52,486 nucleotides of DNA from Methanobacteriota archaeon (GTDB lineage: Archaea; Hydrothermarchaeota; Hydrothermarchaeia; Hydrothermarchaeales; JACRDW01), in contig JBDRDL010000057.1 in assembly GCA_043820925.1 (NCBI GenBank), positions 1 through 52,486 on the forward strand, read 5' to 3'. Positions 1,627-43,560 of this stretch are shown piece by piece (the stretch's first letter is position 1; each line of letters begins with the position of its first letter). The position numbers were made by a program, and so were the translations under genes. A model generated the notes under the pieces. It was not told the DNA's origin and searched no databases. It saw only the letters and a list, made by a program, of their open reading frames with translations.

Positions 1627-1670
1627 TGGAAACCGACGTAGGTGGTCATATATGCCAGCATTCAGACCAC

Positions 1671-2699
1671 CTACATCCTATGTTCTGAGCCGTGCTCGAA
1701 CTGTTCTAATTCCAGCTGCGCCTTCCATTTTTCTTTGCAACCGCAGTTGCAGTTTAAATTTAAATGTTCTTCGTTTTGTTCAGCAGAAAAATCTATTATT
1801 CCATAGTAAACTTTACTGTCGCATTCGCCGCAGTTATGCGCCCCCCTTTGCTTTCCGGCAGCTGTCGGATGGCTGAGCACCGGAATTTTCATCTTTTTCT
1901 TAACGCTCTTCAAAATCTCAGCAATGCTCCATAACCATGGCGGAGAATATTCTCCCTTCCTCCAGAGATACTCGACGAGTGTTGCCCTCTGAATATTAAC
2001 GGGGTTGAAAGAAATTCTATCCGCACCGAGCTTGCAGGCATCGACGGCAGATGCTATCGCATCGCCTATGGCTTCTCTCTCGCTCAGAAAAGGAGGCTTC
2101 ACGAGCAAATATGCCTTCACTTTTACTCCAGAATTCCTGCAAATTTTTAATGCTTTCTTGAAATCCTCCAGAGTAAAATTCTTGTTTATGCAGTTCTCCC
2201 TTATGTAGTCGCTGGTAGTTTCTAATCCGATGCCAATTTCAAACTCAGCATTCAGCTTTTCCTTTACAGCGAGTGCATCTTCTGTTATAAATTCAGGTCT
2301 CGACTCGACCTGTACCTGAATTATTTCGCTTCGCCTGTTGATTTCAGAAAAAATTTTTTTTGCAGTATCTTGAGAAATTTCTGAGGAGTCGAAAAAACTT
2401 CCAGAGTTGAAAATTTTCAGGTATTTTATATCCTCAAAATTTTTCATCACAGCCTTAAACTGACGCAAAATTTCCTCCTGGCTATTATTCCAGGAATCGT
2501 AAACATAGCCGCACATCGTGCAGCCCGAGTTTCGACCCCACCTGCATCCGAGAGTAGGGAGTATAACGACGCCCGCATTTACTGCCCTGTCCAAGAAATC
2601 TTTCTCCTTCCAGAAAGTCGCTTCGCTCCTTCCCTTAAACTTCGCAAGTCCTGCCTTCCTTATTTTTTGCACAGCTTCGTTCAGCGCTTGATTGACCAT
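1671..2699 (-). CDS. radical SAM protein of the TIGR01210 family (RaSEA, archaeosine formation partner of ArcS)
   Basis: 342-aa ORF with the cluster motif GCRWGRNSGCTMCGY plus the FNSGSFFD and GLETTSD blocks typical of this family. The arcS halves are on the same strand 1.3 kb upstream. Confidence 0.7.
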   Translation of the reverse strand: MVNQALNEAVQKIRKAGLAKFKGRSEATFWKEKDFLDRAVNAGVVILPTLGCRWGRNSGCTMCGYVYDSWNNSQEEILRQFKAVMKNFEDIKYLKIFNSGSFFDSSEISQDTAKKIFSEINRRSEIIQVQVESRPEFITEDALAVKEKLNAEFEIGIGLETTSDYIRENCINKNFTLEDFKKALKICRNSGVKVKAYLLVKPPFLSEREAIGDAIASAVDACKLGADRISFNPVNIQRATLVEYLWRKGEYSPPWLWSIAEILKSVKKKMKIPVLSHPTAAGKQRGAHNCGECDSKVYYGIIDFSAEQNEEHLNLNCNCGCKEKWKAQLELEQFEHGSEHRM

Positions 2700-3726
2700 G
2701 CAGCACCTCTGAGATTTTATTTTTTAACTCATCAAAGCCGATATTGTACTTTGCAGACATTGCGACGCAATTTCCAATTTTTTTCTCTTCTATTGCATTA
2801 CCCAAATCGATTTTATTCAGGACATAAACGACTGGAATATGGTCTGCTCCAATATTTACAAGCGTGTTTTCGCATATCTCTTTTTTCCTGAGGAATTCCT
2901 CCAGAGGCTCGGAGGCATCCAAAACGAGAAGCACCAAATCAGAATTTTTTATTTCGCCGAGCGTCGCCGTGAATGCGTAGATAAGCTCGTGAGGCAGGTT
3001 CCTTATGAAGCCCAAGGTATCGTTTACAAAAACTTTCTCTCCGCCGAGCTTTATGCATGCAGTTTTTGTTCTCAAGGTCGTGAACAGCTCATCTCTCGCC
3101 TCTTCCTGCAGTTTTGCCAGTCCGTTGAGTATCGTCGTCTTTCCGACGTTAGTATATCCAGCGATGGAAACAACTTTTCCTTTTTCTTTTCTCCTCTTAC
3201 TCTGCAGCGCTACCCTTTCCTGAAATCTCTCCAGCTTTTTTTCTATTTTCTTTATCCTCTTGTGCAAAGCGCTTACAGTCGAATGAATTATATACTCTCC
3301 GCTGCTCCCGAAGCCGGGATGCTCTTCTCTGACTTTTCTGCCGAGGAAAATCTTTATGTACGGCAGCTTGCGCTTGAGCCTTGCAAGCTCGATCTGCAGC
3401 CTCGCTTCCCTGCTCTTCGCATGCTTTTCGAAAACATTGAGAATTAAGTCAAACTTGTCTATTACAGGAATTTTGAATTTTTCTTCGAGGCTCATAACCT
3501 GCCTTGAGTTCAGGTAATCCTCGAATATCGCCAGTTTAACTCTGTTCTCTCGAATGAAATTCGAAATCTCCTCAACCTTTCCTTCCCCTATGAGAAATCT
3601 AGCCCTGGGTCTCGAAAATTGAGCGAAGGTTTTCACTACTTCATACTCACCGGTGTGCGCTAGGAGCTTTATCTCCTCCTGCCTTGCCTCGTCAGGAGCT
3701 GTTACAACTACAATAGCCTTATCCAT
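2635..3726 (-). CDS. hflX: GTPase HflX
   Basis: P-loop GYTNVGKTT, G3 DTLGFI, G4 NKID and an HflX-type N-terminal domain. I prefer the ATG at 3726 (MDKAIVVV) over the TTG at 3732 used by the ORF track. The 3' end overlaps the RaSEA start by 65 nt. Confidence 0.85.
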   Translation of the reverse strand: MDKAIVVVTAPDEARQEEIKLLAHTGEYEVVKTFAQFSRPRARFLIGEGKVEEISNFIRENRVKLAIFEDYLNSRQVMSLEEKFKIPVIDKFDLILNVFEKHAKSREARLQIELARLKRKLPYIKIFLGRKVREEHPGFGSSGEYIIHSTVSALHKRIKKIEKKLERFQERVALQSKRRKEKGKVVSIAGYTNVGKTTILNGLAKLQEEARDELFTTLRTKTACIKLGGEKVFVNDTLGFIRNLPHELIYAFTATLGEIKNSDLVLLVLDASEPLEEFLRKKEICENTLVNIGADHIPVVYVLNKIDLGNAIEEKKIGNCVAMSAKYNIGFDELKNKISEVLHGQSSAERSCAKNKEGRTCEV

Positions 3727-3790
3727 TTTCAAACGTAGAAAATTTTGCCTTCAGCAAAATTTTCAGACGTTGAAAATTTCTACGTTGAAA
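3727..3790. repeat. AT-rich compound palindrome (copy X) abutting the hflX start codon
   Basis: The sequence TTTCAAACG-TA-GAAAATTTTGC-cttca-GCAAAATTTTC-AGA-CGTTGAAA is followed by a further CGTTGAAA. A second copy lies at 5564-5609. Confidence 0.6.
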
Positions 3791-4895: not shown

Positions 4896-5798
4896 CTACA
4901 GCGACACAGCAGTATATTTCTCCAAAAAATCCTGCTTATCTCTGTCAAGCAGCCTGAGAATTACCATAGATGCGGCGTCGCACGAGGCTTTTTCCTCCAC
5001 GAGCTCCCTCATGCTGTCGCTTCTTATCGCCTCTCTTATCTCCCTTACAACCTGCACCGCTGTATTGAAATTGTGCGTGAGAATATCATTAAACTCCAGC
5101 TCAAAAGGAGCTCTGGTTTTACAAATCTCACAGAAGCAGGGAAGTTCTTTAAGGCTTTGCAACTTCAAAAAACCTCTCGCTGTTATTAGTTTTTTTTCTC
5201 TCGCCTTTAAAACACAGTCCGCAGAATCGAACAAGTCAATACCCATGTATGCGAGCAAGTAAAACATGTGCGGCGGTGCGAAAGGAAGATATAAAGCAGA
5301 ATTCGGAGAAATCGTATCCCTGGCCCTTGTTACTATCTCAACGAGCAGCCTTGGATTTTTAACTAATTTTGCGCCGTTTGCAATTACCAGTAGAGGACGG
5401 TCTTCTAATTCCCGGGCGCACTTTTCTCTTAGGTCAATGTATTTTGACCCCTGAATAACCGCTCCCTGCCCAGGATAATTTTTGGCAAACTCTACTGTCC
5501 TCCTAACAGCTACTTCAGCTATGCTTCTCGGAACGTTCAGCCCAGCGTGCTCATCAGGCAGTATTTCAACGCCTGAAAATTTTGCAAAGCAAAATTTTCG
5601 ACGTTGAAAAAAACTTCCGCAGTCATAAACCACTGGCTTCTTCTTAGTTTTGAAATCGCAGGAAGCCAGATAAATGTCGTGGTTGAGATTTATGCCTTTG
5701 ACTAAATTCAGGAAAAAATTAGGAGTCCGAATTACGTCGTCATTGCAGCGCAGCTTGCCTAATCTAGCAGGTCCGCAGTGCTTGAGAATTTCAATCAT
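4896..5798 (-). CDS. arcS: ArcS N-terminal half (tRNA-guanine transglycosylase-like domain) as a separate ORF
   Basis: 300-aa ORF whose N-terminus [23 protein letters not shown] and overall layout resemble the TGT-like domain of ArcS/ArcTGT. It ends at a TAG 10 nt before the DUF5591/PUA ORF, which is in another frame. Confidence 0.6.
5564..5609. repeat. AT-rich compound palindrome (copy Y) inside the arcS N-half coding sequence
   Basis: The sequence is TTTCAACG-CCT-GAAAATTTTGC-aaa-GCAAAATTTTC-GA-CGTTGAAA. It shares 33 identical arm positions with copy X at 3727-3790 and encodes ..[15 protein letters not shown].. in frame. Confidence 0.6.
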
Positions 5799-7125: not shown

Positions 7126-8283
7126 TTAAAACTGGGCTATTCCAATCTCTTCATCAGTCAGATAGCACGCAGGGTCAGGTGCCCAAACATCGCCGTAAGC
7201 CGCTTCTGCACGGACTCTAAAATTGCCGTTGCAGATGTCGAGATACTTGCAAGCTCCACACCGCCCCTTCAGCAGATGTTTTCTGCTCTTTAGCCCAGCC
7301 ATAAGCGGGTCGGTTGTATCGCTCCATATCTCGCCGAACTTGCGCTCTCTAACGTTGCCGAATGAATAGTGCCTCCAGAACTGGTCTGCGTGAACATATC
7401 CGAAGTTGTCAACGTTTGCTATCGCAATGCCAGAGTTGTTGCCTCCGTTCCACCTCAGCAGTTGCAGCACTTCTTCTGCTCTCTCTGGCTGTTCCTCTTT
7501 TACTCTCAGATAGAGATAAACTCCATCCGTATGGTTGTCCACAGTTAGAATTTCGGTATCCACTCTTCTCCTGCAGAAGTCGAGAGTCTTATCGAAAATG
7601 AAATCCACAACCCTGCGAGTCTGCTTTCGTGTGAGGTCTTCCTTAATCATTTTACTCCCCCTGCCAGAATAGACGAGATGATAGAAGCACGCCCTCGGTA
7701 TTTTCTCCTTCTCAATTAAATCGAAAATCGCAGGAATGTCTCGATAGTTGTGCTTGCTGATTGTGAAGCGGAGCCCGACCCTTACATTTGCTTCCTTGCA
7801 GTTGCGAATTCCTTGGAGTGCTTCTTCAAAAGCTCCCTTCTTGCCCCGAAACTTATCGTTGGTCTTTCCAATGCCGTCGAGGCTTATTCCTACGTATGAA
7901 AAATTCGCTTCTTTTATTTTCTGCGCCGTCTCAGGCGTTATTAGAGTGCCGTTTGTAGAGATTACGGTTCTAAGTCCAAGCGAGACTGCGAATTTTCCGA
8001 GCCCGAATAAATCGCTCCTCATAAGAGGCTCGCCTCCAGAAAAAAGGAGAACAGGAACTTTGAACTCTGCTAAGTCTGAGATGAATTTTTTTGCCTCCTG
8101 CGTCGTTAGTTCTCCCTCAAACTCCCTATTCGCTGCATTTGCATAGCAGTGCATGCAGCGCAGATTGCAGCGCTGCGAGACGTTCCAGACCACTATCGGC
8201 TTTTTATCCTTCGAGAATCTACCGTATCTGAGCGCATCTCCGACGCTCGCAGTTCCGCACAGCAGCTTTGTGCATCCTATCAT
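7126..8283 (-). CDS. ahbC: NirJ-like radical SAM/SPASM enzyme of the alternative heme pathway, tentatively AhbC
   Basis: Motifs include CNLRCMHCY, FSGGEPLMR and a C-terminal SPASM Cys cluster (GRCGACKYLDICNG). It lies directly downstream of two AhbA/B-type genes. I prefer the ATG at 8283 (MIGCTKLL), which has GAGGAG 9 nt upstream, over the TTG at 8301. The AhbC versus AhbD assignment is tentative. Confidence 0.65.
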   Translation of the reverse strand: MIGCTKLLCGTASVGDALRYGRFSKDKKPIVVWNVSQRCNLRCMHCYANAANREFEGELTTQEAKKFISDLAEFKVPVLLFSGGEPLMRSDLFGLGKFAVSLGLRTVISTNGTLITPETAQKIKEANFSYVGISLDGIGKTNDKFRGKKGAFEEALQGIRNCKEANVRVGLRFTISKHNYRDIPAIFDLIEKEKIPRACFYHLVYSGRGSKMIKEDLTRKQTRRVVDFIFDKTLDFCRRRVDTEILTVDNHTDGVYLYLRVKEEQPERAEEVLQLLRWNGGNNSGIAIANVDNFGYVHADQFWRHYSFGNVRERKFGEIWSDTTDPLMAGLKSRKHLLKGRCGACKYLDICNGNFRVRAEAAYGDVWAPDPACYLTDEEIGIAQF

Positions 8284-8404
8284 TTTCAATCCACTCCTCA
8301 AAACTCACTTCGTTCGTTTTTCGTCGTGTCTTGACCCACTGGGTCTCGGCATGAGCAATCATTCGCTCTCGCTTATATGAAAAGCTTGATTGTGAAGTGC
8401 TGAG
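8284..8404 (-). promoter_or_regulatory. structured leader/intercistronic RNA element, copy A
   Basis: The whole 123-nt spacer between the ahbA/B-like stop and the ahbC start is homologous to 30620-30760. It is identical over GGGTCAAGACACGACGA and GAGGAGTGGATTGAAA, with shared CTCAGCACTT and CAAGCTT blocks further 5'. Confidence 0.6.
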
Positions 8405-12890: not shown

Positions 12891-12955
12891 AGCTTTGCTC
12901 CTAAAGTAGCTTTTGCTCCTAAAGTCGGCGAAAATTAAGAGTTTAGGAGCAAAGT
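12891..12955. repeat. left copy of a ~65-bp direct repeat flanking an AT-rich insertion
   Basis: The sequence is AGCTTTGCTCCTAAAGT-AGCTTTTGCTCCTAAAGTCG-(18 nt)-TTTAGGAGCAAAG. It contains two direct copies and one inverted copy of the TTGCTCCTAAAGT core, and the same architecture recurs at 14125-14190. Confidence 0.7.
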
Positions 12956-13047: not shown

Positions 13048-14076
13048 TTATAATTTTTGTTGCCCAGCAGTTCCCATTAATTTATAAATCTCTTCAATGT
13101 TTAAAACCTTAATCTCTCTATATGGATTTAGCATTTCAATAAACTTCATTTTCTTATATCCCCCTTCATCTAAACAAATTATATAGTCGTTTTTATTCAG
13201 AGATGTATGTTGATTCACTATATCTTCAAATGATACCGCTCCTCCATTCAATTCTGCGAAGCTTAAAAGCGATTGAAAAAAATCGGTATCGCTAACTATT
13301 TTGTTATCAACACTTTCTGATTTATGTATAATAAAAAGCGGATGAGGAAAATGTAGTTCGACTTTTAAAGAGTGCGAAAATTCAGCATTTAAATATTCAA
13401 TTTCATCATCTCCGATGAATTCTGAATCGATATAGGCAGGCGTATTATCTTTAAGTTGATGATAAATCTCCTTTGCATCGATATGATGAACTGTATGTTT
13501 AATGTATCCACAAATAAGGTCACATAAAGAAATACAAGGATGTGTTTGATCTCCGTGGGGGACAATATTAACTACATCGGCTTTTTTCCCAATAAATTTC
13601 CATGCTTTAGTTATTTTCCCTTGTATTCCGTCTAATATAACATGTTTTGCATAATTAGGATAGCGGGATTTTAAATAATATCTCCAAATTGGAATAATTG
13701 GATAATATTGTTGCAGTATGTTATTAATAAAATCCAACCCAGCCATTTCTTCTTTCCAAGTAGGTACAGGATTCATTAATATGGTATTTGTTACATTTAT
13801 CTTTTTTATATTCTCAATTTTCAACAATTCCTCAGTCAGTTCTATATGTGCGTCTTGTATATCATAAGATGGGATTTTTCTGAAAATATCCTCGGTTTTT
13901 AAAACTCGCCTTAGCAAACTAATATTGTATTTTTTATAAAACCTTTCTATGATATTAAAATACTTATTTCTAAACTCATTATATCCACCAATCTCTACAG
14001 CAACTCCCGTAAGATTGGAAAAGTTACCACGTCTAATGATGGCAGAGTCGGAGGCAACGAGATGTTCATTAAACAT
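13048..14076 (-). CDS. hypothetical protein, orphan, on an AT-rich island
   Basis: 342-aa uninterrupted ORF in a region visibly more AT-rich than its flanks. I see only a weak DUF3800-like pattern (N-terminal VASDSA, later HGDQTHPCISLCDLICGYI), which I cannot verify. Confidence 0.6.
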   Translation of the reverse strand: MFNEHLVASDSAIIRRGNFSNLTGVAVEIGGYNEFRNKYFNIIERFYKKYNISLLRRVLKTEDIFRKIPSYDIQDAHIELTEELLKIENIKKINVTNTILMNPVPTWKEEMAGLDFINNILQQYYPIIPIWRYYLKSRYPNYAKHVILDGIQGKITKAWKFIGKKADVVNIVPHGDQTHPCISLCDLICGYIKHTVHHIDAKEIYHQLKDNTPAYIDSEFIGDDEIEYLNAEFSHSLKVELHFPHPLFIIHKSESVDNKIVSDTDFFQSLLSFAELNGGAVSFEDIVNQHTSLNKNDYIICLDEGGYKKMKFIEMLNPYREIKVLNIEEIYKLMGTAGQQKL

Positions 14077-14124: not shown

Positions 14125-14190
14125 AGCTTTGCTACTAAAGTCGGGTTTCTGCTCCTAAAGTCGCTTGAATTTCTTACTTTGGGAGCAAAG
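14125..14190. repeat. right copy of the ~65-bp direct repeat flanking the AT-rich insertion
   Basis: The sequence is AGCTTTGCTACTAAAGT-CGGGTTTCTGCTCCTAAAGTCG-(14 nt)-ACTTTGGGAGCAAAG, with the same order and orientation of cores as 12891-12955. Confidence 0.7.
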
Positions 14191-18061: not shown

Positions 18062-18093
18062 TTATATCTAAGCCAATATATAGCATGCCACGG

Positions 18094-18101
18094 TATATAA
18101 A
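18094..18101 (+). promoter_or_regulatory. TATA-box candidate for the aroA leader transcript
   Basis: TATATAAA lies about 210 nt upstream of the aroA ATG, which would give a long 5' UTR starting near 18125-18135. Confidence 0.4.
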
Positions 18102-18134
18102 TCAGCCCTTTTGAAAAAAGCGCTGGCGGAAAAG

Positions 18135-18309
18135 GTTGTGAGCGATTCGAGAGCTTTGCTCTCGAGCTCTGTGGGTTCTCCAAGGGCAAGCCCTTGGAAG
18201 CGAACAATACCCTTGCGTAAGCAAGACCGAATGGTTTTGCGCCTACCTAACGGTATTGGGTCAAGACACGAGGAGAAATGAAGGGTCTCGGCATGAAAAA
18301 GGTGACAAA
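18135..18309 (+). promoter_or_regulatory. long hairpin-rich 5' leader of aroA, partly related to leader copies A and B
   Basis: There are three perfect hairpins: TCGAGAGC-ttt-GCTCTCGA, CCAAGGGC-aa-GCCCTTGG and CTTGC-GTAA-GCAAG. It also contains the 15-nt block TGGGTCAAGACACGA shared with 8326-8340 and 30658-30672 (opposite strand). Confidence 0.55.
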
Positions 18310-19602
18310 ATGGAAGTAAGAGTTGAAAAAGTTGAAGGAATTAGGGGCAATGTAATTGCGCCTCCTTCCAAGAGCTATACTCATCGAGCCTTCATTATCG
18401 CCTCACTTGCCGAAGGGTGCTCTGTGATTAAAAATTATTTAAGAGCGCAGGATACTCTCTCAACTTTGAAGGCATGTGGAGCTTTTGGAGTCAGGATAGA
18501 GGAAAACGACAGAGTAACAATTCACGGCTCTGGAGGGAAGTTACAAACGCCAAAAGGGGTAATAGACTGCGAAAATTCTGGCACCACGATGAGGCTGATT
18601 TCGGGCATTGCTGCGTTGGATGGAGAAGTTACCCTTACTGGAGATGCTTCGATACAGCGGAGACCCATGCAGCCGCTGCTCGATGCCCTGAAGCAGCTTG
18701 GTGTTGAGGTATATTCTACCAAGGGGGACGGCACGCCTCCTATACTAATGAAGGGGGGAAATTTGAAGGGGGGCAAGGTAAAAATTCGGGGCGACATAAG
18801 CTCCCAGTTCATTTCATCGCTCCTAATACTCTCTCCCTGCGTTAAGGACGATGTCAGGATAACTGTAACAACTCCAATGAAATCGAAGCCATATATTGAT
18901 TTAACGCTGGATATAATGGAGAAGTTCGGAGTGAAAGTAGAGAACAAAAACTACAGGGAATTTTTCATAAAAGCTGGACAAAAATACAGAGGCAGGGAAT
19001 ACGAAATCGAGGGAGATTATTCCTCTGCGTCATATTTTCTGGCGCTTGCAGCGATGACGCACTCTGAAATTACTGTAAAAAATCTTTTCAAGGAAACCAA
19101 GCAAGGTGATAGGAAGCTCTTGGATATTCTAAAAAAGATGGGGGCTGAAGTGGCTGTAAGAGATAGAGAGATTACTGTAAAGGGAGCGAAGCTCCAAGGG
19201 ATAAGAGCGAGCCTAGGCGATGCCCCTGATTTATTGCCAGCGGTTGCTGCACTCGCATGCAAGGCAAAAGGAAAAACTGTGATAAAGAACGTAGAGCATG
19301 CAAGGTTTAAAGAGAGCGACAGAATCGCAGCATGCAGCAGCGAACTAAGCAAGTTCGGCGTGGATATAGAAGAGAAAAGAGACGGACTCGTTATTTACGG
19401 TACAGGCAGGTTAACTGGTGCTAGAGTAAACAGCGTTGATAAGCTGGGGAGAGCTGACCACAGAATGGCAATGGCTCTCGCTGTCGCAGGTCTGGCTGCA
19501 GAGGGAGAAACGAGCATTGAAAATGCAGAGTGCGTGGAAATTTCCTTCCCTGATTTTTTCAACATTTTAAGGTCTCTTGGAATTATTTTATCAGCGCCAT
19601 AA
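18310..19602 (+). CDS. aroA: 3-phosphoshikimate 1-carboxyvinyltransferase (EPSP synthase)
   Basis: From the ATG at 18310 (AGGTGA lies 4 nt upstream) the motifs are PSKSYTHRA, NSGTTMRL, GDISSQFISSLL and DHRMAMA. Confidence 0.9.
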   Translation: MEVRVEKVEGIRGNVIAPPSKSYTHRAFIIASLAEGCSVIKNYLRAQDTLSTLKACGAFGVRIEENDRVTIHGSGGKLQTPKGVIDCENSGTTMRLISGIAALDGEVTLTGDASIQRRPMQPLLDALKQLGVEVYSTKGDGTPPILMKGGNLKGGKVKIRGDISSQFISSLLILSPCVKDDVRITVTTPMKSKPYIDLTLDIMEKFGVKVENKNYREFFIKAGQKYRGREYEIEGDYSSASYFLALAAMTHSEITVKNLFKETKQGDRKLLDILKKMGAEVAVRDREITVKGAKLQGIRASLGDAPDLLPAVAALACKAKGKTVIKNVEHARFKESDRIAACSSELSKFGVDIEEKRDGLVIYGTGRLTGARVNSVDKLGRADHRMAMALAVAGLAAEGETSIENAECVEISFPDFFNILRSLGIILSAP

Positions 19603-20224: not shown

Positions 20225-21029
20225 AGTTCCATCTTTTTATTTCCTCCACTTTAACAGCTGCCTTTGACCCAGGTTTTCTCCTGAATCTAAATAAGTTCCT
20301 CAGCCTGGTAAAAAATCCAACAATGTATTCTTCTCCAACTAAGTGAGCAGCAAGTTTTTTGAATTCTATTGCAGCAGGAGAATTGGGGCTGTTCAGCACC
20401 ACCGGATTTCCTGAAGCTATACCCTCTCTGACCCCGGCGTCTTCTGGCACTACCGCAATGACCCTTGCATCGAGGAAAGGTTCAATCTCGGAAACTGAGA
20501 GCTCGTATCTCTCGTTCCTAACTCTATTCAGCACGACTCCTCCAACAAGTACCTTATTTCTTTTTGCCACCTCTATAGCCTTGAGGGCGTCTGTAATTGC
20601 CGGAAGTTCTGGATTCGTCACAACTAAAACCTCATCACAAAGTTCCAGTATCGGAATGATTTCATTCCCCAAGCCGGAGCAGGAATCTATCAAAATTAAT
20701 TCATAACTCTCTAACTCATTCAAGAACTCCTTTAACTCCTCTAAATCCGGATATGCTTTACTCGGTGCGAGAGGAGCTAGCAGCAGTTTAACGCCGCTTA
20801 CATGCGCCTGCACTGCCTCCAAAATTGGAACTTTTTTTTTCAATACATCCTCAAGAGAAACGGAAGGAGAATAGATTCCAAAATGCAGTCCTAAATCCGA
20901 AGTAATAGTGCTGCCGTCTATAAGAACTACTCTCTTTTTAAACTCAGAAGCCAAGGCAGCACCTATATTTGCAACAGCAGTTGTTTTCCCTACGCCGCCT
21001 TTTCCTGAAATAACCGCTATAGTCTTCAT
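20217..21029 (-). CDS. MinD/ParA-family P-loop ATPase
   Basis: It has the deviant Walker A SGKGGVGKTT and the MinD-like layout. It overlaps both neighbours by 4-8 nt. Confidence 0.8.
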   Translation of the reverse strand: MKTIAVISGKGGVGKTTAVANIGAALASEFKKRVVLIDGSTITSDLGLHFGIYSPSVSLEDVLKKKVPILEAVQAHVSGVKLLLAPLAPSKAYPDLEELKEFLNELESYELILIDSCSGLGNEIIPILELCDEVLVVTNPELPAITDALKAIEVAKRNKVLVGGVVLNRVRNERYELSVSEIEPFLDARVIAVVPEDAGVREGIASGNPVVLNSPNSPAAIEFKKLAAHLVGEEYIVGFFTRLRNLFRFRRKPGSKAAVKVEEIKRWNYD

Positions 21030-22522
21030 TCAATTCTCCCTTTCGCCAGCCTTACTCCATGCTTTATTTGTTTTAGTGCCCTTATCTTTTTTCCTCTGTA
21101 GACTCTGCTAACATATATCCTTCTCAGAATCAATGCTACGAACATAAAAAAAATAACATAGCTAATGTGGAACTTACGCAGTATTCTCTCCTCCCAACGT
21201 ACTTCTGTAGGAGCGGGCTTAACTTTCGCTGTCTCTGGAGTAACTATAAGCGAGGGGGCGATGCTCTCTACGTGATAAATCGCTCCGCGCAAGTCTTCGT
21301 ATATCACATCTAATCTCGGAAGCTGATAGGTTGCGCTCTCTGGCTTATATAAATTTTTGGCCCTAACTTTATATGAAATTACTATAGATTCTCCTGGCTT
21401 GAGCTCCCCACCCCACGCCAGTTTTCCCTCTATCAGCTCTAAGCCGCCGGGAATTGAGTCTCTGAAGCGTACGTTACTCGCCCTGCCCTCTCCAAGATTT
21501 TGTATAGCTATCTCAACTGTAGTGCTTTCGCCCTCAGCTATAACTGAATTTGCGATAAATTTCGATACGCTCAATCTTGGTAATTTGGATACGTCCTCTG
21601 CTGGCTGTATTCTTTTGAAGAAATAAATGTTGTTGTCATAAGAACCGGCTACAGCATAGTTTCCGTCAATAGATGTCGCAACCGAAGATACATAGTAAGC
21701 AGTCCTATATTTCCCAGATAAATTACCGGAGTAATTTAGGAAGTAGACGTTGTTATCCCTCGAACCTGCAACCACGTATTCTCCGCCAGAGGACAGTGCA
21801 ACATCCCATATTTCATCGCCGGCCTTGTACTTCCACAGCAGCTTTCCTGTTGAGTCGAAAAAGTAGACGTGGTTATCGTAGCTGCCTGCCACTATGTATT
21901 TACCGTCTGGAGAGATTGAAGTGCTGAGTCCAACGTCAAAGACTTTATACTTCCAGTGCAAAACGCCTTCTGAGTCGAAGAGATAAATGTGGTTATCATA
22001 GCTGCCTGCTGCTGTGTAGCGGCCGTCTGAGGAGATGGAAGTACTTAGCACAACGTCGTCTGTCCTGTACTTCCATAACAATTTGCCGGTTGAATCGAAT
22101 AAATACACGTGGTTATCATAGCTGCCTGCTGCTGTGTATTTACCATCTGAGGAGATAGCTACTGTCCAGACAGTGTCGCCAGTTGCGTACTTCCACAGCA
22201 GCTTTCCTGTTGAGTCGAAAAAGTAGATGTTGCGGTCTTTTGAGCCTGCTGCTGTGTATTTACCATCTGAGGAGATAGCTACTGTCCAGACAGTGTCGCC
22301 AGTTGCGTACTTCCACAGCAGCTTTCCTGTTGAGTCGAAAAAGTAGACGTGGTTATCGTAGCTGCCTGCTGCTGTGTATTTACCGTCTGACGACATGCCG
22401 ACCGTCCAGACTCCAGAGGCGGTAGAATAACTCCAAATCATTACCTGCTCTTCTGTATAAGCTACTGGTGTAATGGAAAGCGATGCAAGTAATATTAAAC
22501 CTATTAACTTTTTTTTATTCAT
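21026..22522 (-). CDS. secreted seven-bladed PQQ-like beta-propeller protein with CARDB/DUF11-like domain and C-terminal membrane anchor
   Basis: Sec-type signal MNKKKLIGLILLASLS. There are seven 40-aa repeats (SSDGKYTAAGSYDNHVYFFDSTGKLLWKY). These are followed by an Ig-like block (GESTTVEIAIQNLGEGRASNV) and a hydrophobic tail with basic residues. Confidence 0.7.
   Translation of the reverse strand: MNKKKLIGLILLASLSITPVAYTEEQVMIWSYSTASGVWTVGMSSDGKYTAAGSYDNHVYFFDSTGKLLWKYATGDTVWTVAISSDGKYTAAGSKDRNIYFFDSTGKLLWKYATGDTVWTVAISSDGKYTAAGSYDNHVYLFDSTGKLLWKYRTDDVVLSTSISSDGRYTAAGSYDNHIYLFDSEGVLHWKYKVFDVGLSTSISPDGKYIVAGSYDNHVYFFDSTGKLLWKYKAGDEIWDVALSSGGEYVVAGSRDNNVYFLNYSGNLSGKYRTAYYVSSVATSIDGNYAVAGSYDNNIYFFKRIQPAEDVSKLPRLSVSKFIANSVIAEGESTTVEIAIQNLGEGRASNVRFRDSIPGGLELIEGKLAWGGELKPGESIVISYKVRAKNLYKPESATYQLPRLDVIYEDLRGAIYHVESIAPSLIVTPETAKVKPAPTEVRWEERILRKFHISYVIFFMFVALILRRIYVSRVYRGKKIRALKQIKHGVRLAKGRIE
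21604..22411 (-). repeat. seven tandem ~120-bp coding repeats (propeller blades)
   Basis: Units 22141-22260 and 22261-22380 are nearly identical at the DNA level. The other units are progressively more diverged. Confidence 0.8.
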
Positions 22523-30178: not shown

Positions 30179-30619
30179 TCATATCACAAAATTAACGTTT
30201 TCCTTCGTGCAGCCAAAAACTATACTCGTTCTGATTTCGTTGATTCCCTTAATTCTGGTCATGTTTTTCTCCACAATCTCTTTCAGGCTTGCCATGTCCC
30301 TGGTTCGAATCTTGGCTACTACATCATAATCTCCAATAGTAGTATAGACTTCGGTTACATCTTCTATTTTGCTCAGCTGCCCTGCGATTTCAGCTGCCCT
30401 GCCTACTTCGCAGGTTATTGCAACTATTGCCGTGGTTTCTTTTCCGTACTCCTTCTGGTTCATGGTAATCGTGAATGCCCTGATAACTTTATCCGCAAGT
30501 TTCCTGATTCTTTTGTGCACTGCTACATCGCTTATTCTTGCATATCTGGATATTTCTTTATACGGCGTCCTGGAATTTTTTTGGAGCACTTCTAAAATTT
30601 TTTTGTCTCTCTCATCCAT
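30179..30619 (-). CDS. Lrp/AsnC-family transcriptional regulator
   Basis: From the ATG at 30619 the translation is MDERDKKILEVLQKNSRTPYKEISRYARISDVAVHKRIRKL plus a C-terminal RAM/AsnC_trans_reg domain. The 33 upstream codons in the ORF track belong to the conserved leader element. Confidence 0.85.
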   Translation of the reverse strand: MDERDKKILEVLQKNSRTPYKEISRYARISDVAVHKRIRKLADKVIRAFTITMNQKEYGKETTAIVAITCEVGRAAEIAGQLSKIEDVTEVYTTIGDYDVVAKIRTRDMASLKEIVEKNMTRIKGINEIRTSIVFGCTKENVNFVI

Positions 30620-30760
30620 TTCAATCCACTCCTCGAAACTCGTTGCACTCGTTTCTCGTCGTGTCTTGACCCATGACGCCACTTGCTCACGCAAGTGGGT
30701 GTCGGCACAAGTAGGCATTCGTTCTGCTGATATGGGAAGCTTGCCTACGAAGTGCTGACA
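30620..30760 (-). promoter_or_regulatory. structured leader RNA element, copy B (5' UTR of the Lrp gene)
   Basis: It is homologous to 8284-8404 over its whole length and carries an extra hairpin CCACTTGC-GTGA-GCAAGTGG. It ends in GAGGAGTGGATTGAA-ATG. Confidence 0.6.
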
Positions 30761-30914
30761 AGTGCTGAGTTAAGGGTTCTAACTGCTGCAAAGGTATCGT
30801 TTTTCTATGGTTAAAAATTTGGTTTAGTATCTTATATATTTTTCGGTATACTGGTTAATAAAATCTTTTAGAAAACTTTATATATGCAAGAATATATTAT
30901 CAAATTAACTAATT

Positions 30915-30980: not shown

Positions 30981-33194
30981 ATGACCGAAGAAAATCTTGA
31001 ACGTCGAAGCACGCTTTCCAAGATTCGAAAGAGAGACGGCAGGATAGCCGAGTTCGACCAGAAGAAAATTACGAATGCAATATACAGGGCATTGCTTGCA
31101 ACGCAGGATGTGGAGCACCAGAAATCGCAGGCTACCTTAACTGGTGTGCCCTACCCAAAAGAGGTTTCGCTCAGCAAACTCGCAAAAGAATTGTCTGGCA
31201 AGGTTGTAGCTGTACTGGAGTACCAGTTCGACAGCAAGAGCGTTCCGACTGTTGAAGAAGTTCAGGATGTCGTTGAAAGAGTTCTAATAAAGAACGATTT
31301 GGCTGAAACCGCAAAAGCTTACATCCTTTACAGACACCAGCGCAAGAAAATCAGAGAAATAAAATCCACTTTCGTTGATGTTCAAAATACAATGAGCGAG
31401 TACTTGAACCAGACTGACTGGAGAGTCAGAGAAAACAGCAACGAGGATTACTCCTTCTCAGGATTGATGCTGCACGTCTCTGGAAAAGTCATTGCAAATT
31501 ATGTGCTGAACGAGATTTACACGCCTGCTATCGCAGAGGCTCACAAAAAAGGATACATACATCTACATGATTTGGGGCACGGCGTCGTGGGCTACTGCGC
31601 AGGCTGGTCTCTGAAAAACTTGCTTGTTAGAGGCTTCGGGAACGTTCCAAATAAAGTGGATACAAAGCCTGCGAAGCATCTCGACGTGGTAATCTCGCAG
31701 ATGGTGAACTACATGGGCTGCTTGCAAATGGAGTTTGCAGGTGCGCAGGCTTTCTCTTCAGTAGATACCCTGCTTGCACCCTTCGTAAAGGCTGACAGTC
31801 TAACTTACAGGCAGGTGAAGCAGAACTTACAGCGCCTGGTCTTTTCTCTGAACATTCCTTCGAGGTGGGGCTGCCAGATGCCCTTCACAAATTTAACTTT
31901 CGACTGGACAGTGCCCGAGGACATGAAGAACGAGAGAGCAATCGTAGGCGGCATGGAGCAAAATTTTACTTACGGCGACTGCCAGGCTGAGATGGACATG
32001 ATAAACAAGGCATTCCTGGAAATTATGAGAGACGGCGATGCAAATGGCAGGATATTTACCTTTCCGATACCCACTTACAATCTGACCAAGGATTTCGACT
32101 GGGACAGCGAAAATGCAAACCTGCTTTTCGAAGTTACCGCAAAGTACGGCACGCCCTACTTCCAGAACTACATAGGAAGCGAGTTAGACCCGAAGAGCAT
32201 CAGGGCGATGTGCTGCAGGTTAAACTTAAATCTGAACGAGCTCGTAAGGAGACCAGGTCACGTTTTTGCAGCAGGAGACAGCACGGGCAGCATAGGCGTG
32301 GTAACCATCAACATGAACAGGCTCGGCTATGAATCCAAAACGAAAGAAGAGTTCTTCGAAAGATTACAGCGCTACATGATTCTGGCAGAGGATTCTCTTG
32401 AGATAAAAAGGAAGGTCATAGAGAAGAACCTGCAGAACGGCTTAATGCCCTACACGAAGTCTTACCTGGGAACTTTCAGAAATCACTTCTCCACGATTGG
32501 TCTCTGCGGAATGAACGAGGCATGCCTGAATTTCTTGGGAAAGAGTATTGCAGCGCAGGAAGGAAAAGCATTTGTAATTGAAACGCTGCTTTTCATGAGA
32601 GACCTCATAAGAGAATTCCAGAGAGAAACTGGCAACCTGTACAATCTAGAAGCAACGCCCGCAGAATCTACTGCGTACAGATTCGGAAAGTTAGACAAGG
32701 AACTCTACCCTGATATAATAACTGCGGGCGGGGATACCCCCTACCTGACAAACTCGACACACCTGCCCGTCAATTATACTGACGATGCAATAGAAGCAAT
32801 AGAACACCAGAACGATGTACAGCCCCTTTATACCGGAGGAACAATCTTCCATACCTTCATGGGTGAAAGAATGAGCGGCGCAGAGAGCTGTAGGACTTTG
32901 GTTAAGAGAATAGCGCACAACACCAAGATACCATACTTTACGATAACCCCTACTTTTAGCGTGTGCAGAACTCACGGCTACATAAAAGGCGAACAGCTGC
33001 GCTGCCCTGAATGCGGCTCTGAAACAGAGATTTACTCCAGAATTGTAGGATACTTCAGACCTGTGAAAAACTGGAACAGGGGCAAAAAGGAAGAGTTCAG
33101 AGAAAGGTTGGAATACGAAGAATCCAAGACTCTGAGCCACAGCCTCGAGAGGGAAATTATTGCGGAGCACAAGTTAGTGAGCGTTGCTACTTAA
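30981..33194 (+). CDS. nrdD: anaerobic ribonucleoside-triphosphate reductase (class III)
   Basis: It has an ATP-cone (KIRKRDGRIAEFDQKKI), the thiyl-Cys finger loop SIRAMCCRLNL, a C-terminal Zn ribbon (CRTHG..CPECG) and the glycyl radical motif SRIVGYFRP. The start at 30981 has a GGAGGG SD. Confidence 0.9.
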   Translation: MTEENLERRSTLSKIRKRDGRIAEFDQKKITNAIYRALLATQDVEHQKSQATLTGVPYPKEVSLSKLAKELSGKVVAVLEYQFDSKSVPTVEEVQDVVERVLIKNDLAETAKAYILYRHQRKKIREIKSTFVDVQNTMSEYLNQTDWRVRENSNEDYSFSGLMLHVSGKVIANYVLNEIYTPAIAEAHKKGYIHLHDLGHGVVGYCAGWSLKNLLVRGFGNVPNKVDTKPAKHLDVVISQMVNYMGCLQMEFAGAQAFSSVDTLLAPFVKADSLTYRQVKQNLQRLVFSLNIPSRWGCQMPFTNLTFDWTVPEDMKNERAIVGGMEQNFTYGDCQAEMDMINKAFLEIMRDGDANGRIFTFPIPTYNLTKDFDWDSENANLLFEVTAKYGTPYFQNYIGSELDPKSIRAMCCRLNLNLNELVRRPGHVFAAGDSTGSIGVVTINMNRLGYESKTKEEFFERLQRYMILAEDSLEIKRKVIEKNLQNGLMPYTKSYLGTFRNHFSTIGLCGMNEACLNFLGKSIAAQEGKAFVIETLLFMRDLIREFQRETGNLYNLEATPAESTAYRFGKLDKELYPDIITAGGDTPYLTNSTHLPVNYTDDAIEAIEHQNDVQPLYTGGTIFHTFMGERMSGAESCRTLVKRIAHNTKIPYFTITPTFSVCRTHGYIKGEQLRCPECGSETEIYSRIVGYFRPVKNWNRGKKEEFRERLEYEESKTLSHSLEREIIAEHKLVSVAT

Positions 33195-39730: not shown

Positions 39731-39932
39731 AAACAGAAGAATTCGGCGAGATATCTGAAACGGAGGTTTTCGAATCGGTACAAAGTGGAGAAGTGATAGA
39801 AGCAAGGTCTGCAACAACTGCGGCGAGCGGTACTACGATGCAGTTACTTGAGGATATAAAAGAAAAACTCATGAAAAAGAAGTTAAGTTTAGAAGTTGTT
39901 GGTAGAGTCGTGAGAATTTCCAAGGCTATCTA
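39731..39932 (+). pseudogene. fused, frameshifted remnant of a DUF4258 toxin / YgiT-type zinc-finger antitoxin pair
   Basis: 39731-39805 aligns to 43085-43160 (EEFGEISE.EVF.SVQSGEVIE). 39806-39932 aligns to the 3' half of 43324-43560 (CN.CGERYYD..MQLLE..KKL.LEVVG.V) with internal deletions. Confidence 0.6.
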
Positions 39933-40995: not shown

Positions 40996-41244
40996 TGTCG
41001 TTGTGAAGAAGGCTGCCCTAAAAGAGATTAAGAAAGAAACCAGGGGAACGAAAAATAGGATTTTTGATTCGCTGAAGAAACTTGAGAATCCATTCGCTAT
41101 ACCTTACGAGAAACTCAGGGGAAGGAGAACGTTTACCGTATAAGAGTTGGAGACTTCAGGGTTATTTATTATGTAGACAAGGACAAAAACGAGGTTGTGG
41201 TTTTCAGAATAAGAAGGAGAGGCAGAGCATACAAGGGGTTGTGA
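40988..41244 (+). pseudogene. RelE/ParE-family toxin gene disrupted by a frameshift
   Basis: Frame A reads (M)FSVVVKKAALKEIKKE..LENPFAIPYEKLRGRRTFTV*. A second frame continues YRIRVGDFRVIYYVDKDKNEVVVFRIRRRGRAYKGL*, the canonical RelE C-terminus. The shift lies in the GGGGAAGGAGAA run near 41118-41130. Confidence 0.65.
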
Positions 41245-41257
41245 AACGAAGTGCGTC

Positions 41258-41476
41258 GTGTGTAAAAGCTTGGACATTGTTGAAAAAGAAGTGGAGGAAG
41301 AGATTAAAGTAAACAGCGACATCGCTCTTTATCCTGTGAAAGTCAAGGTCTGCAACAGCTGCGGCGAGCGTTACTACGACAGAATAGCTGTGCTCTCCTC
41401 TTTCGCTGGTTTTCTAATTCCAAACAATAATATAAACGTTAATGTTCATTTTTTAATTAGGTGTAAAAATGGCTAG
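41258..41476 (+). pseudogene. truncated YgiT-type zinc-finger antitoxin paralog
   Basis: I estimate about 88% nt identity to 43330-43465. The ATG is replaced by ACG (the first Cys of the CxxC is lost if the GTG at 41258 is used). The sequence diverges after ..CGERYYDR into a short methylase-tail fragment (41402-41428). Confidence 0.6.
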
Positions 41477-43009: not shown

Positions 43010-43327
43010 GTGTTAGAAAAAATCAAAAAGTGTTTCGTAGAAGACAGAGCGCTGTACACGAAACACGCCAAGATAGAAATGGAAACAGAAGAATTCGGCG
43101 AGATATCCGAAAAGGAGGTTTTCCAATCGGTACAAAGCGGTGAAGTAATAGAGGAATATCCAGATGCAGAGCCCTACCCATGCTGCCTGATTTACGGAAG
43201 AACCAAAAGCAACAGACCGATACACTCCGTCTGCGCGTACTCTGCCGAAGACGACCTTGCAATCGTGGTAACAGTTTATGAGCCAGATGTTAAAAAATGG
43301 ATTGATTACAGGAGAAAGGTAAAATGA
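43010..43327 (+). CDS. DUF4258-domain toxin-like protein
   Basis: From the GTG at 43010 the translation is LEKIKKCFVEDRALYTKHAKIEM..ISEKEV..GEVIEEYPD..PCCLIYG..RPIHSVCAY, the DUF4258 pattern. It overlaps the zinc-finger partner by 4 nt. Confidence 0.6.
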   Translation: MLEKIKKCFVEDRALYTKHAKIEMETEEFGEISEKEVFQSVQSGEVIEEYPDAEPYPCCLIYGRTKSNRPIHSVCAYSAEDDLAIVVTVYEPDVKKWIDYRRKVK

Positions 43328-43560
43328 AGTGTGTCGTGTGTAAGAGTTCAGACATTGTTGAAAAAGAAGTCGAAGAAGAAATCAAATTAAATAGCGACAT
43401 CGCTCTTTATCCCGTTAAAGTCAAAGTCTGCAACAGCTGCGGCGAGCGGTACTACGACAGAAAGACGATGCAGCTGCTGGAAGGTGTCAAAAATAAACTA
43501 AAACAGAAAAAATTAAGGCTGGAAGTCGTTGGGAAGGTTCTGAGGGTTTTGGCGGCTTGA
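43324..43560 (+). CDS. YgiT-type zinc-finger (MqsA N-terminal-like) antitoxin
   Basis: 78 aa with CVVCKS..CNSCGERYYD (CxxC-x32-CxxC). It is the only intact copy of three in the window. Confidence 0.7.
   Translation: MKCVVCKSSDIVEKEVEEEIKLNSDIALYPVKVKVCNSCGERYYDRKTMQLLEGVKNKLKQKKLRLEVVGKVLRVLAA

Follow-up and report, generated by a model that had tools for sequence, protein, structure and literature searches.

Interspersed palindromic repeats are well known in bacteria and poorly described in archaea. Bacterial MITEs (miniature inverted-repeat transposable elements), such as the Neisseria Correia and enterobacterial ERIC/IRU elements, are ~100-200 bp long, have inverted termini and lie in dozens to hundreds of copies between genes, with which they are co-transcribed; as RNA they fold into hairpins, and they alter how neighbouring cistrons are expressed or how stable these are. 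Rickettsia palindromic elements (RPEs) are palindromic repeats that can lie in frame inside protein genes and be translated. Repetitive extragenic palindromic sequences (REPs) have a conserved GTAG or CGTC tetranucleotide at one end, as passages of one report describe (PMC3733652), bacterial interspersed mosaic elements (BIMEs) are mosaics with units in alternating orientation, according to part of a second (PMC2817692), and REPIN doublets are mobilised by RAYT transposases, according to part of a third (PMC3116915). The gene for the cognate RAYT (Y1/HUH) transposase is often flanked by the repeats. Bacterial REPs stabilise upstream mRNA, and in E. coli the stalling of ribosomes has been reported for REPs no more than 15 nt from a stop codon (PMC12306157). 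Here we describe a structured palindromic element in a 52,486-nt stretch of archaeal DNA (contig JBDRDL010000057.1 of a Methanobacteriota archaeon of the JACRDW01 lineage; hereafter the window), starting from the copy that forms the leader of an Lrp/AsnC-type gene (copy B).

The element is restricted to one lineage of uncultured archaea from groundwater, is modular, has helices that are maintained by compensatory change, is co-transcribed with genes and, through its last module, supplies the Shine-Dalgarno (SD) sequence and spacer of the gene downstream. Copy B probably (we would put it at roughly 0.6) belongs to a mosaic palindromic repeat that is lineage-specific and present in many copies, the archaeal equivalent of elements of the REP/BIME, REPIN or MITE type. 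An intergenic repeat that is present in many copies and carries the ribosome-binding site (RBS) of the next gene points to a genome-wide repeat and not to a gene-specific RNA switch. An earlier note on this DNA had described a leader in two copies, before lrp and ahbC; the window instead holds three copies, many more were found elsewhere, and they precede at least 12 functionally unrelated genes. To our knowledge, no other such repeat ends precisely at start codons and brings the SD sequence with it.

The alpha module of the repeat comprises R1 (CUCAGCAC), a 7-bp helix with a variable interior (P2) and R2 (GUGCCGAGACCC), with R1 and R2 forming an imperfect inverted pair. The beta module comprises R3 (GGGUCAAGACACGA), the hairpin P4 and R4 (GAGGAGUGGAUUGAAA-AUG; the module ends in GGAGUGGAUUGAAA-AUG), and an optional ACUUGC-loop-GCAAGU hairpin is placed between alpha and beta. 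Read 5' to 3', a full copy runs from the upstream stop codon through (TT)CUCAGCAC-UUC (R1), P2, whose interior ranges from 25 to ~200 nt, and (C)UC-GUGCCGAGACCC (R2). There follows either a 3-nt loop (AGU/AUU) or 0-7 nt, the small hairpin (C)ACUUGC(C)-loop-(G)GCAAGU(G) and a further 6-8 nt. The 3' half consists of R3, which is the reverse complement of R2 save for 4 nt, then (C/G)GA-P4 hairpin-GA(G/C), and finally R4 in the form GAGUGGAUUGAA(A)-AUG. The small hairpin was found in 9 of the 13 full copies; only its loop varies (GCAA, GUA, GAA, GAG, GAGA and GCGA, with GUGA and GUAA also seen), and in L002 and L096 (L numbers denote further loci) it is inverted, with the loops TTAC and TCAC. The earlier view of this feature as a classic variable stem could not be upheld, since the hairpin is a recurring module with an invariant palindromic ACTTGC/GCAAGT stem that also occurs inverted, and not a helix that varies freely.

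The modules are combined, nested, duplicated and inverted differently from locus to locus. Beta occurs alone directly after a stop codon in L011 and after a TATA-like box in L001, whereas some copies carry another 5' module, modX (UGAGCCCUUUUGAAAAAAGCCCUCGGGG...). An alpha module is nested between R3 and R4 in L010 (5070-5200), and the R3 14-mer flanks alpha at three loci. The right arm of type II copies (L101/L102, L003 and, in part, the window's third copy, copy C) is an inverted alpha (GGGUCUCGGCAU...AAAUGCUGAG) followed by AGGUGGAUUGAAAUG. Short direct repeats flank some copies (ATGA at L004 and L097, TGAT at copy A, AAAATGAGCC at L008) and follow no uniform rule.

Nearly all copies lie between open reading frames (ORFs), with modules filling the gap between one gene's stop codon and the next gene's ATG, and in nine copies the upstream stop codon stands 0-6 nt before the first module. 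R4 abuts an ATG at 26 junctions, 22 of which open ORFs of at least 72 codons. The genes that follow the element (ahbC-like, lrp, aroA, lumazine synthase, NTP transferase, KH protein, S15, S4e, L14 in two populations, NDK, ArgG and TrpG) share no function. The earlier note had named absence from orthologous lrp leaders together with scattering in coding regions as grounds for rejecting a structured leader; the element proved to be absent from the more distant lrp ortholog and scattered genome-wide, but mostly between genes and not inside them. Upstream ORFs without a stop codon before the element run into it at L095, L093, L012 and L099, and in L007 (4180-4334) the upstream ORF traverses all 150 nt of it as far as the UGA in GGAUUGA, which would add ~50 residues at the C terminus. 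At L094 (1386-1441, minus strand) a beta module is read in frame within a TiaS-like ORF of 499 codons as ...RVKTRREANEMSFEEWIEN..., with ATG changed to ACG and ~23 residues added. An inverted modX (1650-1690, minus strand) overlaps the 5' end of the TiaS-like ORF at the same locus, leaving the usual TiaS start (…HIGIDDTDS) without an ATG of its own. RNA data consisted of assembled contigs, which at best document transcription, as presence and read-through, and not 5' or 3' ends. One such contig runs from the 3' end of ahbB through a variant of the element to the start of ahbC, another covers the copy C stretch (18092-18314), and further RNA contigs match the element only.

Two smaller palindromic features were noted beside these modules. 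A solitary AGGAGTGGATTGAAATG with no other module lies at a junction between cysteine-desulfurase-like and IscU-like genes (L009, 5645-5664, plus strand), where the upstream ORF stops at its internal TGA; it could be a remnant, or an ancestral junction that gave rise to R4. A second palindromic family, TTTCAACGTCTGAAAATTTTGC-loop-GCAAAATTTTCNACGTTGAAA, occurs in the window at 3733-3790 and 5564-5611, and one of its copies adjoins the ATG of the minus-strand gene 2635..3732. In L096 this hairpin is joined to R2, just upstream of it (the copy with R3 from 5300, minus strand), which makes it a candidate further module of this mosaic.

Exact-pattern scans of 185,579 species representatives found the element 3 and 10 times in a single metagenome-assembled genome from groundwater, JACRDW01 ("Methanobacteriota archaeon"), and otherwise gave a single chance match in Arthrobacter; the 10 occurrences, all in that one genome, were obtained with a 22-base pattern. 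The same kind of scan returned seven contigs, all from one sample, from the JGI metagenomes and 0 matches from viral contigs. A chance origin of the shared pattern is excluded. Over 195 kb of lineage DNA a covariance model of beta gave 32 matches, of which 22 reached E <= 2.3e-7; over 517 kb of unrelated loci its sole match was L005 (E 0.0011), the Arthrobacter locus that had been fetched by the DNA pattern itself. At least 20 alpha units were found in the ~195 kb of lineage DNA. With a loose alpha pattern (20 fixed bases) run on genome contigs, the matches listed were mostly chance ones in GC-rich bacteria, and among them only the JACRDW01 loci were genuine. Summed over 30610-30780, DNA contig depth was 5-12x that of the flanks in two metagenomes containing the window, and many metagenome contigs match the element alone. 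Against Rfam 15 the whole window produced no match at gathering score, and copies A-C no meaningful one at E <= 10. NrdD was also tried as bait for orthologous lrp loci, but its best relatives (68% identical) came from unrelated lineages because nrdD is horizontally mobile, and these were kept as negative controls.

As with the REP/BIME sequences of Enterobacteria and Pseudomonas, the element consists of short imperfect palindromes in many copies that are extragenic, often intercistronic and transcribed. Like BIMEs it is a mosaic in alternating orientation (alpha and inverted alpha, the small hairpin both ways, and the nested R3-alpha-R4), and as in REPs a hairpin is maintained by compensatory change and lies near stop codons (PMC12306157). 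Type II copies, built of alpha, a spacer hairpin and inverted alpha, resemble REPIN doublets as these are described in part of PMC3116915. It differs from all of these in its archaeal host, in its larger units (alpha 65-210 nt) with a variable interior and, uniquely, in a 3' module that carries the SD sequence and spacer and stops exactly at the next start codon. As read from the sequences, alpha starts with (TT)CTCAGCAC and finishes with GTGCCGAGACCC, and it lacks the GTAG/CGTC end tag by which passages of PMC3733652 characterize REPs. The element shares with MITEs its size range, its many copies placed between genes, imperfectly inverted termini, RNA hairpins and co-transcription, but shows no clear pair of terminal inverted repeat and target-site duplication, has no known parent insertion sequence, shifts its module make-up between orthologous loci and is fused to the start codon. 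The beta module in frame inside TiaS and the upstream ORFs extended into the element recall RPEs; in-frame copies are nevertheless exceptional here, most being intergenic, and the lineage is unrelated and without sequence similarity. Integron attC sites or gene cassettes, in which an imperfect palindrome follows every promoterless cassette ORF, the genes are mobile accessory ones and an integrase lies nearby, were rejected because the flanking genes are core operon genes (S17-L14, L24e-ndk), and a reading of the element as a DNA operator was considered and set aside.

For the analysis of structure, 20 alpha units were aligned without gaps at fixed offsets from the invariant blocks, the interior being replaced by AAAA. 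As judged from the alignments, P1 (R1 with R2), P2, P4 and the SD-holding helix R3:R4 all covary. The alpha alignment contained 92% standard pairs as against 76% in shuffles; no shuffle reached its covariation score, and slid controls dropped to 22-38% paired. All seven pairs of P2 change on both sides across the 20 copies, and the outer 4 bp are hypervariable yet always paired. At one position of P1, 17 copies have C-G and 3 have G-C; copy B is one of the latter, its swap being compensatory relative to CUC...GAG. In the beta alignment, which was fitted to its own model and hence is biased towards structure, 96% of cells were paired and 10 of 13 pairs showed double changes. The GAAAC/GUUUC stem of P4 in copy B is replaced elsewhere by GCACC/GGUGC, GAAAU/AUUUC, GAAGC/GCUUC or ACGAC/GUCGU, and the C-G pair adjoining it is replaced by G-C in eight sequences. 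A fold shared beyond the SD-proximal hairpin, as the earlier note had proposed, was recovered by RNAalifold from eight full copies, with P1, P3 (CCC/GGG), P4 and a long R3:R4 helix in the consensus.

The R3:R4 helix contains the pairs UCAA/UUGA, CAC/GUG and C/G alternating with three tandem G.A/A.G steps, with the SD sequence GGAG inside it. A k-turn or L7Ae motif, in which tandem sheared G.A pairs adjoin a 3-nt bulge separating a C stem from an NC stem, was rejected because these steps form symmetric 2x2 loops with no such bulge. An alternative, global fold joins R2 to R3 and CACUUC to GGAGUG; the two schemes are near-isoenergetic and the SD sequence is paired in both. RNAfold returned the global fold for L009 and L010 and the local one (R1:R2 with R3:R4) for copy B, L096 and L097. 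The earlier note had asked whether SD accessibility changes between folds: RBS opening energies of the copies (5.4-10.9 kcal/mol) were near those of other genes of the window, used as a crude control (median 6.0, interquartile range (IQR) 3.9-8.5). Strong sequestration of the SD sequence was rejected because these values barely exceed that control; the SD sequence would be only mildly masked because the R3:R4 helix is weak, its C-G and A-U pairs being broken by the three tandem G.A/A.G mismatches. Folded alone, copy A was unconvincing (RNAfold z = -1.68); support for the structure comes from comparison of copies and not from the folding of single sequences.

At orthologous loci an element is retained while its interior is exchanged, this being 48-65% identical where coding DNA is 85-90% identical. 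For ahbC (copy A of the window against L002), identity was 85.5% over coding positions +0..+240 and 53.8% over -160..-56. The corresponding values were 89.6% and 57.1% for the NTP transferase (L004 against L097), 89.6% and 47.6% for L14 (L008 against L095), and 84.6% and 65.5% for lrp (copy B against L101). At the lrp locus identity is 88% in the promoter region that precedes the element and 65-70% in the element itself; at the ahbC locus beta is better conserved than the adjoining coding DNA (96% as against 86%). An 89%-identical Lrp ortholog (L101/L102) carries a different P2 (GACGACA/UGUCGUC) and, as its 3' half, an inverted alpha (the type II arm). The element is absent from the 74%-identical lrp ortholog (L103/L104), which is also divergent from nrdD and whose leader, with GGTG as its SD sequence, is plain and AT-rich, so the lrp-nrdD interval is polymorphic for presence (window, L101/L102) and absence (L103/L104). 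In a single metagenome contig, weak evidence in itself, 30673 is connected with 30777, so that alpha and the hairpin are left out. Such turnover is opposite to that of a ligand-sensing aptamer and fits replacement by recombination or re-insertion. At L103 (1953-4228) and L104 (36-2376) nrdD is called as two ORFs (691/689 aa and 65 aa), both of which match NRDD, which suggests a split or frameshifted C-terminal glycyl-radical segment.

A gene-specific riboswitch leader is disfavoured by these divergences of the interior relative to coding DNA, together with the mixed functions of the genes, the lack of a matching Rfam family and the absence of the element from the 74%-identical ortholog. The element does resemble riboswitch and attenuator leaders in being a structured 5' untranslated region (UTR) with covarying helices, alternative 1:2/3:4 and 2:3 pairing and an SD sequence held in a helix; unlike them, it has no aptamer conserved across orthologs, no functional coherence and no Rfam match, is mostly intercistronic, and has parts that are dispensable, invertible and exchangeable.

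Copy B itself (Table 1) precedes a gene with the Pfam AsnC helix-turn-helix and ligand domains, whose closest named Lrp homologs are from Ca. Hydrothermarchaeales (60-66% identity) and from which nrdD (30981..33194) and nrdG are divergent. Its start codon agrees with that of the element-free ortholog L103, and the ~180 nt given for the 5' UTR is an estimate from a TATA-like box. As the earlier note had observed, the CAGCACUU block is doubled at the 5' end. A TAA lies immediately 5' of the first block, no upstream ORF terminates there, and duplication of the R1 block recurs in L004 and L093. The perfect 8-bp GNRA hairpin described at the place of the 3-nt loop of copy A was likewise found, but it cannot sit at the tip of the helix as drawn: ACCC followed by CCACUUGC would require five C's and only three are present (gacACCCACUUGC), so that the 8-bp hairpin and the ACCC/GGGU helix overlap by two bases. 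Placement of the hairpin atop P3 is nonetheless seen in other copies. The alternatives for copy B are the 8-bp hairpin without ACCC/GGGU, which RNAfold chose (-57.4 kcal/mol, z = -3.3), or a 6-bp hairpin atop a P3 of 3-4 bp.

Table 1. Coordinates of copy B and its parts and of the other two copies in the window
Feature	Position	Strand	Role or evidence
Copy B as a whole	30769->30620	minus	leader of Lrp/AsnC-type gene
First CTCAGCACTT block, unpaired duplicate of R1	30769-30760	minus	sequence
Second block, GTCAGCACTT	30759-30750	minus	sequence
R1 UGUCAGCAC, 5' strand of helix P1	30752..30760	minus	paired with GUGCCGACA by RNAfold
P2: GUAGGCA (30748-30742) and UGCCUAC (30717-30711) around semi-conserved AGCUUCCCAUAUCAGCAGAACGAA	30711..30748	minus	RNAfold and covariation
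R2 GUGCCGACACCC, 3' strand of P1 and 5' strand of P3	30697..30708	minus	RNAfold, RNAalifold
GNRA hairpin: CCACUUGC (30698-30691), GUGA (30690-30687), GCAAGUGG (30686-30679)	30679..30698	minus	perfect 8-bp stem
CGUCAU linker	30678-30673	minus	sequence
R3 GGGUCAAGACACGA: GGGU closes P3, UCAAGACACGA pairs with SD strand	30659..30672	minus	RNAfold, RNAalifold
P4 hairpin GAAAC-GAGUGCAACGA-GUUUC	30635..30655	minus	RNAfold and alignment
R4 GAGGAGUGGAUUGA (30634-30621), then AA-AUG; SD GGAG (30632-30629); ATG (30619-30617)	30617..30634	minus	sequence
Copy A, between ahbB-like (siroheme-decarboxylase-like) and radical-SAM ahbC-like genes	8281..8404	minus	sequence, covariance model, RNA contig
Copy C, upstream of aroA	18105..18309	plus	repeat search; weak covariance-model match, E = 0.49

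Copy A is 81% identical to copy B over 72 nt and 78% over 36 nt. It begins with R1 from 8404 and continues with R2 (8352-8341), the AGU loop, R3 (8337-8324) and beta to 8284, with the ATG at 8283-8281. The direct closure GACCC-AGU-GGGUC reported for it reads so at 8345-8333 (minus strand), and the SD-to-ATG ending said to be common to copy B and ahbC is in fact identical in both (GAGUGGAUUGAAA-AUG). Copy C was found through a third GGGTCAAGACACGA at 18258 on the plus strand. Its 5' block (18105-18133) is modX-like; there are several hairpins, one of them CUUGC-GUAA-GCAAG (18211-18226), then R3 (18258-18271) and, in inverted form, R2 (GGGTCTCGGCATG, 18283-18295), followed by the native-looking SD sequence AAAAAGGTGACAAA (GGTGA), which takes the place of the missing R4, and the ATG at 18310.

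If copy B belongs to a mosaic repeat, its copies would have spread or been homogenised as DNA, through either hairpin-dependent transposition or gene conversion among them. In the transcript each domain would close on itself, drawing the upstream stop codon and the downstream start codon together, and the last module would act as a ready-made SD sequence and spacer, through which the element could be tolerated inside operons, those for ribosomal proteins included. Self-closing domains and a mildly masked SD sequence would together let it sit in operons without polar effects. Any effect at the RNA level is probably general, on translation efficiency or coupling or on mRNA stability, and not a ligand-specific control of lrp or ahbC. 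Were this confirmed, selfish or semi-domesticated DNA could live in packed essential operons, even between ribosomal-protein genes, with expression intact, and the copies would amount to a natural collection of intercistronic adaptors, portable and with structural variation already built in. The lesson for annotation is that a "leader" known from two copies, even one that covaries well, can turn out to be a repeat family instead of a riboswitch.

Several observations weigh against the mosaic-repeat interpretation. Random insertion leaves unexplained that R4 is invariant and that it always adjoins the native ATG, and beta is sense-oriented in every strong match. Invariant internal loops and junctions beside stems that covary freely are a hallmark of functional RNA and not of selfish DNA in decay, and P2 differs, with compensation, between copies that share an identical 50-nt interior, which is poorly explained by simple transposition or drift. 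No clean target-site duplication was found at the copies, and, unlike for REPs and REPINs, no transposase or RAYT-like gene was identified, in genome fragments for which no systematic protein scan was made. The unbiased 52-kb window holds just three copies, and the RNA evidence consists of assembled contigs, in which DNA carry-over is possible.

Much of the same evidence could be read as a global post-transcriptional regulon, an explanation that we find unlikely but worth serious consideration. Here the four invariant blocks would form a bistable switch between a local fold (R1:R2 + R3:R4) and a global one (R2:R3 + R1-linker CACUUC:GGAGUG), a trans factor (an L7Ae-like binder of tandem G.A, a small RNA or a small molecule) would set access to the SD sequence in ~5% of genes, and the repeat character would merely reflect the spread of the switch. 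The invariance of loops and junctions beside covarying stems is what it would predict, as are the strictly sense orientation of beta and its fusion to start codons, the near-equal energies of the two folds, between which RNAfold chooses differently among copies, and the conservation of beta at ahbC above that of adjoining coding DNA. It sits poorly with downstream genes that have no common function, with the free exchange of the alpha interior and of the P3 insert, with copies in which alpha is missing (L001, L011) or inverted, and with the lack of any element at the 74%-identical lrp ortholog; the RBS opening energies are barely above the control, and the asymmetric 3-nt bulge of the k-turn type is absent.

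A related proposal, which we rate as distinctly unlikely, combines mobility with function: an undescribed archaeal RNA device, spread by transposons, in which a four-block bistable adaptor (R1-R4) ending in SD sequence and start codon would precede ~5% of genes, ribosomal-protein operons included, and in which a trans factor or the upstream ribosome would set joint translation through the tandem-G.A anti-SD helix.

The position of the upstream stop codon bears on a translational-coupling relay, which appears improbable. A ribosome at the stop codon abutting R1 (R3 in beta-only copies) would unwind R1:R2, R2 would take R3, and R4 with its SD sequence would be freed, so that the downstream gene would be translated only when the upstream gene is. 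The 0-6 nt spacing in nine copies and the stalling reported for E. coli REPs near stop codons (PMC12306157) speak for such a relay, and blocking the 16 nt after the stop codon of the beta-only copy L011 in silico lowered its RBS opening energy from 10.9 to 3.0 kcal/mol. In full-length copies, however, blocking R1 or the 16 nt next to the stop codon in silico did not open the RBS consistently, and the computed effect was small or nil, ranging from 0 to -3.6 kcal/mol, with three of them at +0.3 to +2; copy B has no upstream ORF, and several copies have an upstream ORF that stops within the element or at the TGA in GGAUUGA.

An RNA processing or stability element, very improbable in our view, would use the hairpin domains as cleavage sites (or as a new self-cleaving ribozyme) or as exonuclease barriers that split operon transcripts. 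The intercistronic, multi-copy and strongly structured nature of the element, its GNRA-capped hairpins and the stabilisation of upstream mRNA by bacterial REPs (PMC12306157) are compatible with this, whereas no Rfam ribozyme family was matched even at E <= 10 and the RNA contig reads straight from ahbB through the element to ahbC, although contigs are uninformative on RNA ends. An RNA thermometer, in which the G.A-rich R3:R4 helix would melt with heat and expose the SD sequence as in ROSE or fourU, has next to no likelihood: the SD sequence is indeed paired in a helix rich in non-canonical pairs and its computed opening cost is ~6-11 kcal/mol at 37 C and ~9-16 at 15 C, but any hairpin shows the same temperature trend, the groundwater habitat has a stable temperature, the genes are housekeeping genes, and the alpha modules are left unexplained.

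Other repeats were recorded elsewhere in the window. The 498-codon minus-strand ORF 21026..22522 contains five tandem 120-nt repeats (21741-22396) that are 64-76% identical and include three identical 27-mers, which implies a protein with 40-residue repeats. Segments of 70-144 nt are duplicated at 88-94% identity over ~4 kb (39731-39838, 41241-41384, 43083-43152 and 43319-43462); they include the CxxC-type motif KVCNNCGERYY, which points to small gene cassettes that are paralogous. A 44-nt hairpin-forming sequence, TTTTGCTCCTAAAG...CTTTAGGAGCAAAG, occurs at 12911-12954 and 14147-14190, on either side of the minus-strand ORF 13048..14076.

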